From Promethearchaeota archaeon Loki_b31 (GTDB taxonomy: Archaea; Asgardarchaeota; Lokiarchaeia; Sigyniarchaeales; SOKP01), in the NCBI GenBank assembly GCA_005222975.1, contig NJBI01000003.1:32001-96000 (forward strand): 64,000 bases of DNA, given 5' to 3'. The notes beneath the pieces are model-generated. The model saw only the letters and a list, made by a program, of their open reading frames with translations, was not told the origin of the DNA and searched no databases. Positions 1,556 to 58,857 of this stretch are shown one piece after another; the first letter of the stretch is position 1; the number at the start of each line of letters is the position of its first letter. Both the position numbers and the translations under genes were made by a program.

Positions 1556-3007
1556 TTAACTTTTTAGTTTTCTCTTATAGTTAGTAATTTTAGGTAATAA
1601 AGGAATGAATTCAAGAGGATCTCCAAATACAGGTACTCTCTTTTTTGCTAATAATCTAGAAATGCGATAACTTTCTTCGGGACGGTGGGCTCTCTCTAAA
1701 ATTGGAATTAATGGTTTATTATGTTTATGCCCTAAATATAAAGCCTCAAGCATATTAACTTCAAAGTTCTCAGCTGGTGTTATGGAATACCCGGGATCAA
1801 AATACCAACTTGGAAGGTCCATAATTAGGGCGTCGATTTTTTCATCGGATAAAGCAAGATCAATTATTTCCTTAATGCTTTGGCTGTAAAATAGTTGTGC
1901 TGCTACATCTAAAGGGTTTTTAGAACTTGTACCACGAATAATGAATTTTTTATCCAATTGTTCTTGAATTTTAGGGCTAAATTGAGGTACATTCATTCGG
2001 AATTTTTCAATTAGATCAACTAAGATAACCCCATAACCTCCACTTAAACTGAAAACAGCAATATTTTGTAAATCATTAATTCCGTAGAAGTCTATTAACC
2101 GCGCAGTATGCATCAATTGTTCTAATGTTTCAACTTCAATAAGATTATGTTGTTTGAAAATAGAATTCCAAATTTGAGTATTACCCGAGAGAGATGCTGT
2201 ATGAGTTCTAGCTGCTAGCGCCCCACTTTCGGATTTTCCACCTTTTAAAACAACAATCGGTTTTTTGTTATCAACAAGAACTTGTCTTAAATCAGCTCCT
2301 CGATTTTCTTTAATACCTTCTAAATAACACAAAATCAAGTCAGTTTCATCGTCGTTGCTAAAAAAATGTAAAATGTCTATGAAGTCTAAATCTGCTCCGT
2401 TCCCAAATGAGAACACTTTGGAAAAATGAATGTCCATTTCTTTCGCAGTATAAATAGCAATATTACATACTCCTCCTGATTGGCCTATAAACCCGATATT
2501 TCCAGGAGTCGTTGGGAATTTTGAACGCCAAGCTATGCCTAATTTTGGGTAAAATATTCCCATCCCATTAGGTCCAAGAATTCTAACTTTGTTTTGAGCG
2601 CATTCTATTATTTCTTTCTCTAAACGACGACCATCTTTAGTTCCTGCATCGGAAAACTCTGCTGTAAAGATGTTGACTAATTTAACACCTTTTTCCACGC
2701 AATCGTCGATAACATCTAATACTTGTAACGCGGGCACTGTAATGAAAGCAAAATCAACTTTTCCAGGAATGTCTTTAATAGAAGAATAAACGTTCGCAAC
2801 TGGAAAATTAGGAATTTCTTTAACTTTGGAATGGACAGCATAGAGATCTCCCTTAAAATTTTCTTGGTGATTCCTAAGGAAAAAGAAGTTTCGTTTCTTT
2901 GAAGGGCCTACAACTGCCATTGATTGAATATCGTTAATAAATGAAATATCTTTAACATTTAAGTTAAAAGTTTTAGATGGCGTCATTAATGGTATAAAAT
3001 TAAGCAT
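1556..3007 (-). CDS. Acyl-CoA synthetase (NDP-forming) alpha-like subunit, CoA-binding
   Basis: N-terminal CoA-binding Rossmann fold (AVVGPS, VDFAFITVP), GPNGMG, GQSGG, FGNGADL, phospho-His motif AARTHTASLSG, NPLD. Confidence 0.88.
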   Translation of the reverse strand: MLNFIPLMTPSKTFNLNVKDISFINDIQSMAVVGPSKKRNFFFLRNHQENFKGDLYAVHSKVKEIPNFPVANVYSSIKDIPGKVDFAFITVPALQVLDVIDDCVEKGVKLVNIFTAEFSDAGTKDGRRLEKEIIECAQNKVRILGPNGMGIFYPKLGIAWRSKFPTTPGNIGFIGQSGGVCNIAIYTAKEMDIHFSKVFSFGNGADLDFIDILHFFSNDDETDLILCYLEGIKENRGADLRQVLVDNKKPIVVLKGGKSESGALAARTHTASLSGNTQIWNSIFKQHNLIEVETLEQLMHTARLIDFYGINDLQNIAVFSLSGGYGVILVDLIEKFRMNVPQFSPKIQEQLDKKFIIRGTSSKNPLDVAAQLFYSQSIKEIIDLALSDEKIDALIMDLPSWYFDPGYSITPAENFEVNMLEALYLGHKHNKPLIPILERAHRPEESYRISRLLAKKRVPVFGDPLEFIPLLPKITNYKRKLKS

Positions 3008-30830: not shown

Positions 30831-32339
30831 TTATTTATCATCTTCAACTATTTCTAAACCTAAAATTTTCGCTCCGTTTATGAAATCTTCCTTCCAATCC
30901 CCTATGAAAGTTACCCTATGCCATCCAAATGCGTCCCAATCATAGTTTTCCATAATCTTTTCAACATCGCTCTCAACTAACATTTTAGAAACGCAGCCTT
31001 TTTCATCCACTATATTATCTATTATTTTTCCCGTACGGATTGAGATTTTTTTTTCAAAAACGCTGATTTTAATAGTCGTTACTGGTTTCCCTATTGGAAA
31101 TTTAACGCGAGGTGAGGCACCTAAAAAATGAGTTTCACCATGGTATACGATATCATAAGGCGCTTGTGGACCCTCTGGACCTTGTAAATTACATGGAGCT
31201 ACACAATGCATATACGTGATTTGATTTTTTTTGATATCAAAAGTGTGGTTGGACACATATCCCGGTCTACCAGTTAAGTACAGGCCAAAAAGAAAGCTTA
31301 TGGTCGAATCCATGTCGGACTCACATATGCCGTATTTTCCTTCGTTACTTAATTCGAAAAAAGCCATGCAAGGATAAGCGGGAAACGCGCCGCACAACAA
31401 GAATGTGCCACAATCGGGAGTAAAAATGTCAATGTCTTTATCTTTCAAGATATTTTTAAAAGCTAGATATAGTTTTGCGGAATTTAAAATGGTTTTTTCC
31501 GTGGGTTCTACTAAAGAAGCATTTTCCATCCATTTTTGAGCGATCTTTTTTGCTTGGTCCGTGTTAACCTCATTATAATATTTGAGAATCTCCTCTGGAT
31601 CTCCTCTAATCATTTCTATATCGAATACATTTTTTAAAATTTCTTTATAGAGCGCTTCATCCTTTCTCCACTGGTGTGCTTGATCAAGACCAACTGTATC
31701 GGTATAAAATTCAAATTCCTCATCGTTACTCATTTTACCTACTTGATCCAAAAACTCTGGATGATTTTTAGCTATTCGCATCCGTTCGGGATTAAACAAC
31801 CCTAATATAACCTCCCAGTTCATTTTGATGACGTCCTTAGCGTAAACCAAGACACTTTTTCCTCTCAAACGCACGAGATTAAACATATTCCCAAACATCC
31901 TGTCAAAATCTTCTAAATTTTTTGAAGATAAAATAGATAGTTGATAATTCTTGTCTTTAACACTTGAGAATATTTTTGTGAATGTATGGTCTCCAGCATA
32001 AATATAATTGGCTAATATCACCGGTTTTTTGCTTTCTATAAATTCAATGCCAGCTTGAACAATCCCGGGGTCTCCATAATGCCCTATCGTAAAAACTATA
32101 GCTCCGTCAGCTGCTTTGATATCCGTTTTAATCTGGTTAACTAATTCTTTGTCGTATGTTGTAATAATCTCACTATAGTTAAACTCAATTTTATTAAATT
32201 TCTCGCTTAGATGTTTTCTAATGGAATCTATCGTTTTGTTATTGTCATATCCCAAATAAGGCCATCCAGCTTCCCATTGTGGTTTTCCTATAAACACAAC
32301 TTCTATTTTTACATCTTTATAATTCAATTTAAAATTCAC
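30831..32339 (-). CDS. L-fucose/L-arabinose isomerase-like protein
   Basis: PDC, YPCMAF, CESDMDS, YMHC, GKPVT, FGWHRV resemble the FucI/AraA superfamily. Confidence 0.7.
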   Translation of the reverse strand: MNFKLNYKDVKIEVVFIGKPQWEAGWPYLGYDNNKTIDSIRKHLSEKFNKIEFNYSEIITTYDKELVNQIKTDIKAADGAIVFTIGHYGDPGIVQAGIEFIESKKPVILANYIYAGDHTFTKIFSSVKDKNYQLSILSSKNLEDFDRMFGNMFNLVRLRGKSVLVYAKDVIKMNWEVILGLFNPERMRIAKNHPEFLDQVGKMSNDEEFEFYTDTVGLDQAHQWRKDEALYKEILKNVFDIEMIRGDPEEILKYYNEVNTDQAKKIAQKWMENASLVEPTEKTILNSAKLYLAFKNILKDKDIDIFTPDCGTFLLCGAFPAYPCMAFFELSNEGKYGICESDMDSTISFLFGLYLTGRPGYVSNHTFDIKKNQITYMHCVAPCNLQGPEGPQAPYDIVYHGETHFLGASPRVKFPIGKPVTTIKISVFEKKISIRTGKIIDNIVDEKGCVSKMLVESDVEKIMENYDWDAFGWHRVTFIGDWKEDFINGAKILGLEIVEDDK

Positions 32340-56200: not shown

Positions 56201-56575
56201 AAAGATTTAGGTTTTACGATTTTTGCTACAGAGGACACGAAAAAAGCTTTAAACAAAAATGATATTAAAGCTGTGAGACTTTATAAGGTCCATGAGCATG
56301 GATTGGAGCCTAATATCATGCAATGTCTGCAAGATGGGCGTATTGATATGGTCATAAACATTCCTTTACCAACTACAATCGAGGAGAAATTTAAAACCAT
56401 TATGGAAGACGAATATAAAATTAGACGCATGGCAGTAGACTACAATATTCCTGTAATAATTAATTTACAGCTAGCAAAAGCAGTTATCGACGCTATTAAA
56501 AACATGCGTGAAAAGAAAATTGAAATAAAGTCGCTTAACGAGTATCATCAAACGCTAAAAGAAGTGTATTGGTAA
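53264..56575 (+). CDS. carB: Carbamoyl-phosphate synthase large subunit
   Basis: IGQAGEFDYSG, duplicated ATP-grasp domains, VNARLSRSSALASKATG, C-terminal MGS domain. Confidence 0.98.
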   Translation: MPLDKSIKKVLILGSGGIRIGQAGEFDYSGSQVLKALKEEGIETILINPNIATIQTDPTLSDRVYLLPINVKYVEEVIKKEKPDGILLAFGGQTALNVGVELKELGILEKYNIRVLGTPIEAIEVTEDRELFVKAMNEADAKVCQSKAVTSYKKAIEVAQEFGFPLMLRVAYTLGGRGSGIIDNMKDFERMAKKGLAQSRINQILIEESVWGWKEVEYEVVRDSADNCFINCNMENFDPVGIHTGESIVVAPSQTLTNEEYHMLRSASIRVIRGLGIIGECNIQYALNPFSKEFRVIEVNARLSRSSALASKATGYPLAYIAAKLAIGYTLPELKNKITGITTACFEPALDYLVLKIPRWDLTKFQKVDRRIGSQMKSVGEVMAIGRTFEEVLQKAIRMLDIGMKGLVANNLEPIEDVNELKYTLRNPTDLRLFRIAEAIKIGISIDEIYRLSRVDKWFLYKLKNIIDLNRQIQDIELLESDDNEKKYWLERAKRFGFSDGQIAKIMGVDTIFIRQMRRRLNIHPYVKRIDTLAAEWPAVTNYLYLTYSASEHDINFEKEHNSNLKKVIVLGSGTYRIGASVEFDWGSVNCLWGLKKLGIDQAIMINYNPETVSTDYDISDKLYFEELSGERVLDICELEKADGIVVSAGGQIAQNLASKFSKYSEIFRKTGINILGTHGTRIDMAENRSKFSTLLDQLNIKQPEWNALTTNEGAIAFAQKVGYPVLVRPSYVLSGAAMRVSYDENTLKDTLDLAVSVSSEYPVVITKFFTNAREIECDGVCDGENVFIGAIVEHIENAGIHSGDATMTIPPQTVSNEVISKIENYTNKIALALKIHGPFNVQYLVKNSEVYVIECNLRSSRSMPYVSKSRGINLMRLAAEVIMGEKIPKRLMKLPIGDYVSIKAPMFSFMRLDKADPILGVEMASTGEIGVIADDFPDALIKALEATEQIIPIEGGNILISVGGNKLKKEIIPLAKKIKDLGFTIFATEDTKKALNKNDIKAVRLYKVHEHGLEPNIMQCLQDGRIDMVINIPLPTTIEEKFKTIMEDEYKIRRMAVDYNIPVIINLQLAKAVIDAIKNMREKKIEIKSLNEYHQTLKEVYW

Positions 56576-56602
56576 AATAAAAAAATCTAATTATTTGAAT
56601 CG

Positions 56603-57088
56603 TTAATTTAGCGATTTTATTCTAAAATCTGTTTTAAATTTTTTAATTAAAATTTTTAAAATTTCTTCTTTTGATTTCATTTTACCGTCATAAAAAATTT
56701 TGAACATTTTTTGTTGCGGATAGTATTCTATAGGATACTTAGAGCGATTGATATCGAAATAGAGCTCTAAATCTTCATAAATTCTTTTTATTATATATGT
56801 CCGATTTTCTATAGGTATTGGATTTAAAATTTCGAATTCTAAATCTTTTTTCTTTATAAGATTCTCTAAAAAATGTTTTTCTTTCCTACTTAACCTTATT
56901 GACCTAAATTTCCAAAAATGCCCTATAGTCCACCAGCTAAAAGTATAAAGCAAAATAATCCATAAAGAAGTAATATAAGCAGTTATTGGTGCACCCAAAT
57001 TGAATAAGATCCAGTTAAATACGCCAAGGAAGAATCCACTAAAAACATAAGCTTTTATCGTCCACCATTTTTTCGACCTTTCCATCAA
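56603..57088 (-). CDS. Hypothetical membrane protein (2 N-terminal TMs)
   Basis: Two hydrophobic segments then a basic soluble domain; no motif recognised. Confidence 0.6.
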   Translation of the reverse strand: MMERSKKWWTIKAYVFSGFFLGVFNWILFNLGAPITAYITSLWIILLYTFSWWTIGHFWKFRSIRLSRKEKHFLENLIKKKDLEFEILNPIPIENRTYIIKRIYEDLELYFDINRSKYPIEYYPQQKMFKIFYDGKMKSKEEILKILIKKFKTDFRIKSLN

Positions 57089-57401
57089 CGAGTTCCCTCT
57101 ATTTGTCGTTCTATATATTTCAAATTTAAGTTTAAATTTATTCCTTGCTTTTTAAATAATATTATATCGGTTTTCTAATATTTATTAGTAAACCAAACTA
57201 TTTATTTGTTTACCAAAAAAGAAACTTAAGGGTCTTTTTTTCATTTCGATTTTGGGTATTTGATAATTGGTGATAAAAGTATCTTATTTTATTGGATATG
57301 TTCTTTGAATAAGGCTTTGTCACGATCTTCATTCATTAAATTGTCAAATTGATAAGAAAAATAAAAATTTTTATTTTTTTTTTCTTAGCATTTTTTTAAA
57401 T

Positions 57402-57416
57402 CGAAATCTTTTTAAG
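57402..57416 (+). promoter_or_regulatory. Archaeal BRE-TATA promoter for the putative ncRNA
   Basis: CGAAA-TC-TTTTTAAG; no + strand CDS follows. Confidence 0.55.
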
Positions 57417-57434
57417 GTTATGGTTTATTCTATG

Positions 57435-57812
57435 TGTTAGTTATTCAAAGTCATTCAAGCTAACAAATAATTTTGGTACGCCCCAGGTGTGGCAGATACC
57501 TCTGAAAAACATTGGCAGGACGGCGACAGAATGGACACCCTCCCATATCTTAAAACACTAGGCCATCGCTTTAGCGAGGAGCTTATAAATAAAAATTAGG
57601 GCACGACCCAGAGAGGCCGTCTAGTGGCTTTATAACTGATTCCATTTATATAATGGAATTTTTCGAAACATTGGCGCATGAGGGTAAGGATAAGGTAAAT
57701 TTCAAACTAGGATTTACGGATGTAGCGGTAGCTATCAATTTTTTGAGGTTACAGCTCGTTTCAATCTAAGAAAAAAAGTTTAGTGATTAGAAGCGAACTT
57801 TAGTTCGCAAGG
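57435..57812 (+). ncRNA. Unidentified structured ncRNA (about 380 nt)
   Basis: GC-elevated ORF-free segment with about ten nested or serial stems. G-U pairs work on the + strand only. Promoter upstream, hairpin plus T17 downstream. Confidence 0.65.
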
Positions 57813-57830
57813 ATTTTTTTTTTTTTTTTT
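57793..57830 (+). terminator. Hairpin plus oligo-T terminator
   Basis: GCGAAC-TTTA-GTTCGC followed by 17 T (57814-57830). Confidence 0.65.
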
Positions 57831-58857
57831 ATTGTTTTGACTTATTTAATTTAATCAAAATAAACGGCACCAGATACGATAGAATGAACCCAATTATAGC
57901 ATATCTTATATATCTGTAGAAAACTGAATCAAATACGCCTCTAAAAGCTTCAAGAGCAAAGTAAACTACAAAAATAATAACTAAACCGATTATTAAATTT
58001 ATAATCTTCCATTTTAAAGTTAATTTACTCGGTTCGTAATTAATGTACTCATTCTCAAGTACATATCCGATTCCAAGTCCTAACATTACTCCACAAACCT
58101 GAGCAAATCTACCTGTATCGGTAAAAGCAGGAGGTGTTGGAAGAAGGTTCAGATAGGATGTGGGAAATAAAAGTATCCCCAATAAAAAGAGAAATAAAGA
58201 GGTTATAATAACTATTATCAATTTCACTGGTAGATTTAATTTATTGAATTGTTTCGATCCATAAGGCTCTAAATTAATAAATAACACTAAAATTCCTAAT
58301 CCTATTAAAAATCCACCAATAACATCTTCAAGGTCATGCACGCCTATAATCATTCTTGATATTGCAATTAGGAAAATGAGGATCCCCATAACTATAACGA
58401 AATAAAGCTTTTCTCGAAATTCATATGCGATATAGCCCCATGTTGCTACAGCAGATTGAGTATGTGCTGAAGGAAAACCGTAGGAAGTTTCTATTAATCC
58501 ATCAGGGTTTTCTGGTGTGATTTCTCCAGGATCAGTATTAGATAATGGTCGTGGATCCTGGAAAATATTCTTTAGGAATTCATTCAAATAGACAGTATAT
58601 AATAAGCTCAATGCTAGATTTTTCGCAAATCGCTTATCATAGACGATAAAGAAAATTGCCACCATTACTATGAATACAATTGGGTCTCCAAGAAAAGTAA
58701 TTACTTTGAAAATAGAACGTACCGTAGAGGATTCACTATAAAACGCTTCATTGAAACCCAAAGCAAGAAATATAATTCCTATAATTAACACTGCAATAAA
58801 GATTACTCCAATAGTTATTAATTGTCTCTTACTTAGAATTTTATTACTTTCAGACAT
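57829..58857 (-). CDS. PAP2-family membrane phosphatase
   Basis: KNIFQDPRP, GFPSAH, SRMIIGVHDLEDV. Confidence 0.92.
   Translation of the reverse strand: MSESNKILSKRQLITIGVIFIAVLIIGIIFLALGFNEAFYSESSTVRSIFKVITFLGDPIVFIVMVAIFFIVYDKRFAKNLALSLLYTVYLNEFLKNIFQDPRPLSNTDPGEITPENPDGLIETSYGFPSAHTQSAVATWGYIAYEFREKLYFVIVMGILIFLIAISRMIIGVHDLEDVIGGFLIGLGILVLFINLEPYGSKQFNKLNLPVKLIIVIITSLFLFLLGILLFPTSYLNLLPTPPAFTDTGRFAQVCGVMLGLGIGYVLENEYINYEPSKLTLKWKIINLIIGLVIIFVVYFALEAFRGVFDSVFYRYIRYAIIGFILSYLVPFILIKLNKSKQ

Follow-up and report, generated by a model that had tools for sequence, protein, structure and literature searches.

The DNA between positions 57368 and 57813 of the window is very likely a miniature, non-autonomous element of the IS110 family, which carries its own bridge RNA and from which the recombinase gene was deleted. 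The window is the whole stretch of 64,000 nucleotides that was analysed, from contig NJBI01000003.1 of the Promethearchaeota archaeon Loki_b31 (positions 32,001 to 96,000). An earlier note on this DNA had read the same place as a stand-alone non-coding RNA, possibly a new class. That reading had to be given up. The unit is multicopy with unrelated flanks, its copies in relatives are the 5' RNAs of IS110 elements with a DEDD recombinase, and the copy in the window keeps both ends of an IS110 element with the ORF lost, while a loop of its RNA covaries with the terminus of the element. The parts of the element are collected in Table 1.

Table 1. Parts of the miniature IS110-family element and of its RNA, in window coordinates
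Feature	Position	Strand	Remarks
Whole ORF-less IS110-family element	57368-57813	+	about 446 bp; from T-rich TTTTTATTTTTTTTTTC... at the left to ...GCAAGGA at the right
Left junction	57367-57376	+	candidate core AT (57367-68) and right-donor motif TTTTATTT (57369-76)
BRE/TATA-like promoter motif in left end	57402-57418	+	read from the sequence; predicted start near G57434-G57436
Closing helix P1 around both guide arms	57436-57640	+	57436-44 with 57632-40
Candidate target-binding arm	57459-57516	+	basal stem 57459-63/57512-16; stems covary
Target arm, 5' loop strand	57464-74	+	candidate left-target guide
Target arm, hypervariable hairpin	57475-57500	+	
Target arm, A-rich 3' loop strand	57501-11	+	candidate right-target guide for the T-run
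Donor-binding arm	57518-57622	+	stem 57518-24/57616-22 closes the multiloop
Donor-arm hairpins	57528-50, 57559-85, 57599-609	+	
Donor guide AAAUAAAA(AU)	57587-57596	+	covariation of guide and terminus
Pseudoknot	57537-57685	+	hairpin loop ACCCUC (57537-42) with GAGGGU (57680-85)
3' domain of the RNA	57639-57734	+	shared by miniature and full-length elements up to the ribosome-binding site
Hairpins of the 3' domain	57639-59, 57695-717, 57723-34	+	second variable; third conserved, UAGC-GGUA-GCUA
AAGGAU in the 3' domain	57686-91	+	identical to the right-end terminus; may be a left-donor guide
Deletion scar	57745-57790	+	GAGGT remnant of the ribosome-binding site (57745-49), junction, last ~20 nt of the recombinase ORF
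Remnant TAG stop codon of the recombinase	57788-90	+	from alignment of miniature and full-length elements
Right end	57793-57813	+	hairpin GCGAAC-TTTA-GTTCGC (57793-808) and AAGGA (57809-13)
T17 tract	57814-57830	+	probably pre-existing target poly-T, now predicted transcription stop

The element lies in an ORF-poor gap of 740 bp (57089-57828) between two minus-strand ORFs, 56603-57088 and 57829-58857, and no ORF longer than 40 aa was found between these two, just as the earlier note had described. The GC content is 0.40-0.51 at 57400-57624 and 0.19-0.29 on both sides. On folding, the + strand gave -101.5 kcal/mol with a z score of -2.73 relative to shuffles, while the - strand was unremarkable (z -0.67). 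Together with the strong covariation in relatives given below, this bears out the claim of a structured RNA on the + strand. The BRE/TATA-like motif and the terminal GCGAAC/GTTCGC hairpin with its T17 tract, both pointed out before, are present too, and the region of the promoter motif is the best-conserved part of the unit (95-100% among copies). The RNA has a promoter-like motif of its own, and the earlier note was also right that this + strand RNA is not a UTR of its minus-strand neighbours.

Does the RNA belong to a known family? The Rfam search that had been proposed for this purpose gave 0 matches at gathering thresholds over the whole window, and a permissive E-value scan of 57000-58000 gave only chance-level matches (SprC, SraG and LLnc147; E 2-5), in agreement with the statement that the RNA resembles no tRNA, 5S rRNA, SRP RNA or common riboswitch. 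The archaeal RNase P and SRP RNAs (RF00373, RF01857) were considered and rejected: neither has a match in the window and both were found on other contigs of the genome, the RNase P RNA on C91 (125 bits) and the SRP RNA on C65 (45.6 bits), with no similarity to the element. The SRP RNA itself (G000:C65:10873-11177) scores below the gathering score of Rfam Archaea_SRP, 96.5, and would be missed by standard annotation.

A covariance model was built on the core of the RNA, 57468-57632. At least 28 of the order's 151 genomes have homologues of the core, with 1-5 copies in each; these genomes represent 15 of 24 genera and 3 of 4 families. The counts are lower bounds, with few candidates scored per genome. 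The named records among the matches are Promethearchaeota/Promethearchaeia MAGs, one short Woesearchaeota-labelled contig and one 'uncultured archaeon'. The Woesearchaeota-labelled contig (CAZAZO010000172.1, L154; 2.1 kb) matches the RNA family of the window with 127 bits and is probably mis-binned, or else transferred. A DNA pattern used to scan a contig collection proved too loose: of 80 loci, only 9 were accepted by the covariance model, and most of the matches were chance ones in bacteria, which fail the model.

In the core, 97.9% of the cells are paired in an alignment of 6 sequences and 91% in one of 28 sequences. Double changes were seen in 22 of the 33 pairs of the 28-sequence alignment, against 4-15 in controls with slid partners. 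The extended structure was then compared over an alignment of 23 sequences. For the closing helix P1, the cognate 5' and 3' segments form helices of 7-10 bp whose sequences are wholly different in relatives (for example GACCGCAUCU/AGAUGCGGUC), with a mean length of 8.0 in cognate pairs and 6.1 in non-cognate pairs. The stem 57518-24/57616-22 is 97.5% paired with double changes in 5 of 7 pairs; GGACGGC, for which the earlier note had offered GCTCGTTT as partner, pairs here with GCCGTCT (57616-22) instead. The long-range stem ACCCTC/GAGGGT claimed before covaries in relatives and forms a pseudoknot with a hairpin loop (86% of cells paired, with compensatory forms such as ACUCUUC/GAAGAGU in G038), and covariation was likewise seen for the claimed TCGC/GCGA, GGG/CCC and ATTCCATT/AATGGAAT stems. 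The hairpin 57475-57500 varies between species by fully compensated changes. It had been drawn as AGGTGT/ATACCT: a hairpin is indeed there, only the register was wrong, and the conserved pairing is GGTAC (57475-79) with G-ATACC (57495-500). Three further stems of the earlier drawing can be read in the letters but do no better than shuffles, namely TGTTAGTT/AGCTAACA (57435-65; 61% of cells paired), TGTAGC/GTTACA (57721-53; 42% paired) and CACTAG/CTAGTG (57556-626), which is weak with 77% paired and one double change.

What, then, is the RNA a part of? In relatives, the RNA core is followed at 9 of 28 loci by a same-strand ORF of 440-490 aa, at a distance of 20-130 nt; the ORF carries PF01548 (DEDD_Tnp_IS110) and PF02371 (Transposase_20). 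The recombinase of the relatives matches the solved bridge recombinases IS621 and ISCro4 with E values of 8e-8 and 2e-7, respectively. Because this recombinase ORF is directly 3' of the RNA in relatives, the RNA can be assigned as the left-end non-coding RNA of an IS110-family element; a bridge RNA is encoded at just this position, in the non-coding left end upstream of the recombinase gene (PMC11208160). A group II intron, an omega-RNA and a retron had also been considered for the multicopy unit, and were dropped as the linked ORF is an IS110 recombinase. At one locus (L050, G133:C11, 2298-3448), the recombinase gene that follows the RNA is broken into two overlapping frames of 162 and 243 aa, which looks like a frameshifted, decaying full-length element.

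Comparison with full-length elements tells how the window unit was formed. In the closed genome G038 and in G079, the recombinase stop of the full-length elements is followed by a short hairpin, AAGGA(A)T and T's, the same arrangement as at 57793-57814 of the window, and their left ends also read as a T-run and then C; thus both ends of the window element match those of full-length elements in relatives. Miniature and full-length elements share their sequence from the core to the ribosome-binding site, and the similarity resumes about 20 nt before the stop codon. Where full-length elements have GAGGTGAT and then ATG, the miniatures have the remnant GAGGTTAC, and the miniature of G102 and the full-length element of G079 have the terminal codons and the stop in common. 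It follows from this alignment that the window unit is a near-exact deletion of the recombinase ORF. Miniatures of three genera have the same ORF-less layout, their right end following the core at a distance of 157-182 nt. At the protein level, tblastn of element and genome gave nothing significant for a remnant of the recombinase ORF in the miniature, and its last ~20 nt are seen only by nucleotide alignment. An intact recombinase gene, which an autonomous IS110 element requires, is absent from the window element.

Nor was any IS110-type recombinase found in the rest of this assembly (99 contigs): PF01548 and PF02371 gave no match, and the best hit of tblastn with the recombinases of four relatives had an E value of 0.29, which should be read with the MAG being 92% complete and repeats often failing to assemble. 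In the mini-carrying congeners G023, G005 and G017, no IS110-type recombinase was found either. At the genus level, full-length and miniature forms co-occur in g12 and g15.

By BLAST and nhmmer of the whole assembly, the unit has at least 4 copies in this genome, each with unrelated flanks. Besides the window copy there are one full copy on C38 (91% identity) and 5' pieces at contig ends on C40 and C93; these three are 99-100% alike over the ~130 nt of the 5' part that C40 and C93 contain. In the congener G023, a full copy (85%) and a shortened one were found. The flanks are ordinary and differ from copy to copy (carB/PAP2; amidohydrolase/GH20; aldehyde:ferredoxin oxidoreductase; MFS/carbonic anhydrase), and a search of several kb around each copy in this genome and in G023 turned up no transposase, reverse transcriptase, TnpB or IscB. 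The RNA unit is present in 4 of the 42 genomes of the genus, and the window locus is without it in G017, G005, G049 and G004.

Did these copies move recently? In G017, G005 and G021, the sequence to the left of the C93 copy continues into that to the right of the C38 copy, and between the two there is just one T8-9 A T8-9 tract. This is the empty site. That three copies are nearly identical, and that three congeners lack an insertion at this site, speaks for recent movement. Comparison of copies places the start of homology at about 57362-57368 and its stop at the T-run, with unrelated sequence outside. Since the T-rich start at the left is identical in all copies while the T-runs at the right differ, the element was placed at 57368-57813, and the T17 tract is probably target DNA outside the element. 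An AT can be read at each junction (...A|AT|TTTTATTT at the left, ...AAGG|AT|TTTT at the right), which makes this dinucleotide a candidate for the core. In sum, the insertions are site-specific and oriented, at an A|T step that precedes a poly-T tract, with discrete ends and no terminal inverted repeats, and with an empty site in relatives.

For the window copy itself no simple empty site was found, as the entire 56582-57841 is an insert relative to G002, G047 and G050. This insert consists of a 161-aa ORF (56603-57088, no Pfam family), a spacer and the miniature; in the three genomes without it, carB abuts the PAP2 gene at a distance of about 35 bp. In G049, G004 and G051 the same slot holds a different insert, which ends with a duplicate of the 3' end of carB (window 56354-56465). 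The carB/PAP2 slot looks like an insertion hot spot. Some further arrangements were noticed around other copies. The sequences on either side of the C38 copy (L011:7690-8151) are on different contigs in all close relatives, and the C40 and C93 copies (C40:1-127, C93:8922-9047) are at contig ends; C38 is either an assembly chimera through the repeat or the product of a rearrangement mediated by the copies. On contig C111 of G023 (L015, ~1720-2600, minus strand), only the 5' half of the RNA is found, after a small ubiquitin-like-looking ORF ending in ...QAGGF, and ~65 bp comprising the last codons of this ORF and the T-rich start of the element are repeated about 570 bp downstream, so that they bracket the fragment.

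If the RNA is a bridge RNA, it should contain guides for the ends of its own element. The single-stranded segment 57587-57596, between the second and third hairpins of the multiloop, is complementary at 10 of 10 positions to the DNA at 57367-57376, i.e. the AT of the junction and the first 8 nt of the left end. Its polarity is that published for the right-donor guide, and in orientation and strand it follows the rules of the published bridge-RNA model (PMC11208160). In relatives, the loop 8-mer (57587-57594 in the window) and the left terminus (57369-57376) covary in five classes, which pair AAAUAAAA with TTTTATTT, AAAUUAAA with TTTAATTT, AGAUAAAA with TTTTATCT, AGAUUAAA with TTTAATCT and AAAAUAAA with TTTATTTT; two positions vary independently and both are compensated. 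The exact complement stands where it is expected in 17 of 21 cognate pairs, as against 12.8% of pairs from different classes, counts that are inflated by relatedness. The loop thus behaves in these comparisons as a bridge-RNA donor guide would.

The target arm has an internal loop between its basal stem and the hypervariable hairpin. Where the empty site was verified, the 5' strand of this loop is the same as the left flank of the copy over 11 of 11 nt (CAATTAATTTT), and informative matches of 7-8 nt were found in the distant members L036 and L018. Over the whole family, the match of this strand to the left flank is 6.1 versus 5.05, a weak difference in low-complexity A/T sequence, and the flank of the window copy matches its own target guide poorly. 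The strand 57464-74 may be the left-target guide that the model predicts, for which these matches give partial support, and the A-rich strand 57501-11 would be the partner of the poly-T tract. The donor loop yielded no convincing guide for the left donor. The motif AAGGAU, which has the sequence of the right-end terminus, is invariant and sits in the 3' domain outside the donor loop; it may take this role.

These features give a scenario for the origin and movement of the unit. An internal deletion very likely removed the DEDD recombinase gene almost exactly. What it left over is the left end with its internal archaeal promoter, a complete bridge RNA of about 300 nt, the remnant of the ribosome-binding site, the last codons of the ORF with the stop, and the right end with its hairpin and AAGGA. 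A transcript of about 385-395 nt is predicted, beginning near 57434-36 and ending in the T-run downstream. In it, the closing helix holds the bridge RNA's two arms, and the strands beside the hypervariable hairpin would read the target, an A/T step and then poly-T, as the flank matches in part suggest. By analogy with the mechanism of IS621, an IS110 recombinase provided in trans and guided by this RNA would cut the unit out as a circle, whose RE-LE junction would join ...GCAAGGAT to TTTTATTT..., and by the same analogy the circle would insert at poly-T tracts in intergenic DNA.

A bolder idea is that the miniatures are hyperparasites consisting of a guide RNA only: the donor guide names the ends of the unit itself, so any compatible IS110 recombinase that comes in would be reprogrammed to move the miniature, and some copies have perhaps been co-opted by the host. 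We put this forward as speculation and think it unlikely. If it were true, a full-length element, a plasmid or a virus would be the source of the recombinase, miniatures could persist and spread through Asgard archaeal genomes without a recombinase of their own, and some copies might serve the host in RNA-guided rearrangement or regulation.

Is the miniature still active, or is it only the remains of one? It is possible, though we doubt it, that the miniatures are inert fossils, the decaying relics of a past IS110 invasion, which are no longer transcribed or mobilised and have their structure by inheritance. A recombinase gene was indeed not found in the four congeneric genomes that carry miniatures, and some members are shortened or degenerate, such as those on G023:C111 and on G005:C77, the loop of which no longer matches its terminus. 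However, relics would hardly be expected to include three copies of 99-100% identity over the ~130 nt of the 5' part that C40 and C93 contain, one of them at a site empty in three congeners, nor to have the promoter region as their best-conserved part or a hairpin (57475-57500) in which every change between species is compensated.

Recurrence of the ORF-less layout in three genera, persistence in genomes without detectable recombinase, and the possession of a promoter-like motif and a stop signal might also be explained by domestication, the unit being a host gene for a regulatory or guide RNA whose job is unrelated to transposition. Against this, copy number and position vary among close relatives, no orthologous conserved locus was found, and the unit is missing from the window locus in four congeners and from most genomes of the genus. 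The donor guide, moreover, has kept its match to the end of the unit itself, as a mobile element requires. We therefore consider domestication improbable. Far less credible still is the view closest to the earlier note, that the RNA is a new stand-alone class of cellular RNA, or a paralogue resembling the specificity domain of RNase P, with no relation to mobile DNA. It draws on the absence of Rfam matches and on the large, GC-enriched and structured nature of the RNA, but in relatives the RNA physically belongs to IS110 elements, it occurs in several copies and has an empty site, and the genome has its own RNase P RNA (125 bits) and SRP RNA elsewhere, without similarity to it. A miniature IS110-family element that lost its recombinase gene remains the explanation we prefer.

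What does this mean for the study of RNA-guided recombination? Bridge RNAs and archaeal IS110 recombinases are already known (PMC11208160; bioRxiv 10.1101/2024.06.21.599552, in which 496 Asgard genomes were screened), and varied bridge-RNA architectures have been catalogued beside recombinase genes (bioRxiv 10.64898/2026.10.21.760802). In a limited search of the literature we found no description of an IS110 miniature consisting of the guide only. The analysis removes a false lead, as the window RNA is not a new Asgard class of cellular RNA, and documents an archaeal clade of IS110 bridge RNAs with closing helix, multibranch donor loop, pseudoknot and poly-T target, for which there is no Rfam model. 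RNA-only derivatives are common in Promethearchaeia, even where a recombinase is undetectable, which bears on the question whether bridge RNAs act in trans in nature. For the study or engineering of bridge recombination, there is a compact natural guide scaffold with a cognate recombinase clade in relatives. The relevance is moderate and concerns mainly the natural history of RNA-guided recombination in Asgard archaea.

Among known systems, the bridge RNA of IS621/IS110 (Durrant et al. 2024, PMC11208160; Hiraizumi et al. 2024, PMC11208158) is similar in lying in the left non-coding end, upstream of the DEDD/Tnp recombinase and on the same strand, in its two arms, and in belonging to elements without terminal inverted repeats that insert site-specifically in one orientation. 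The window family differs from IS621 in being archaeal (Promethearchaeota), in an RNA of ~300 nt instead of 177 nt, and in the helix P1 closing both arms, the multibranch donor loop of three hairpins and the pseudoknot to the 3' domain; moreover, the promoter of the window element is inside the left end, its target is an A/T step with poly-T, and its recombinase gene is deleted. The seekRNA of IS1111 (Siddiquee et al. 2024, cited in PMC12288879) is also an RNA guide working with a DEDD recombinase of the same superfamily, but its gene comes downstream of that for the recombinase, within a right end that is long and has subterminal inverted repeats, whereas the window RNA is upstream and the right end is short. 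A MITE in the strict sense was rejected, for the window ends are not inverted repeats (T-run and C at the left, hairpin and AAGGA at the right) and the unit is MITE-like only in being small and non-autonomous. Another known system is MITEPpu9 with the ssr9 gene of ISPpu9 (Pares-Guillen et al. 2025, PMC12288879), a small RNA-gene module with IS110-type ends that occurs elsewhere in its genome without the transposase gene, forms circles and is held by its authors to be mobilised in trans. This is a MITE-like module with an RNA gene, moved by an IS110 transposase, but its RNA is not the guide: Ssr9 is encoded downstream of tnp, is not a bridge RNA and is dispensable for transposition, while the window miniature carries the guide itself and arose by deletion of the ORF. 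Finally, compact recombinase-only IS110 elements without a 5' UTR have been reported and taken to imply guides in trans (bioRxiv 10.64898/2026.08.14.744561). In both cases guide and enzyme are at separate loci, and the window element is the mirror image, keeping the RNA without the enzyme.
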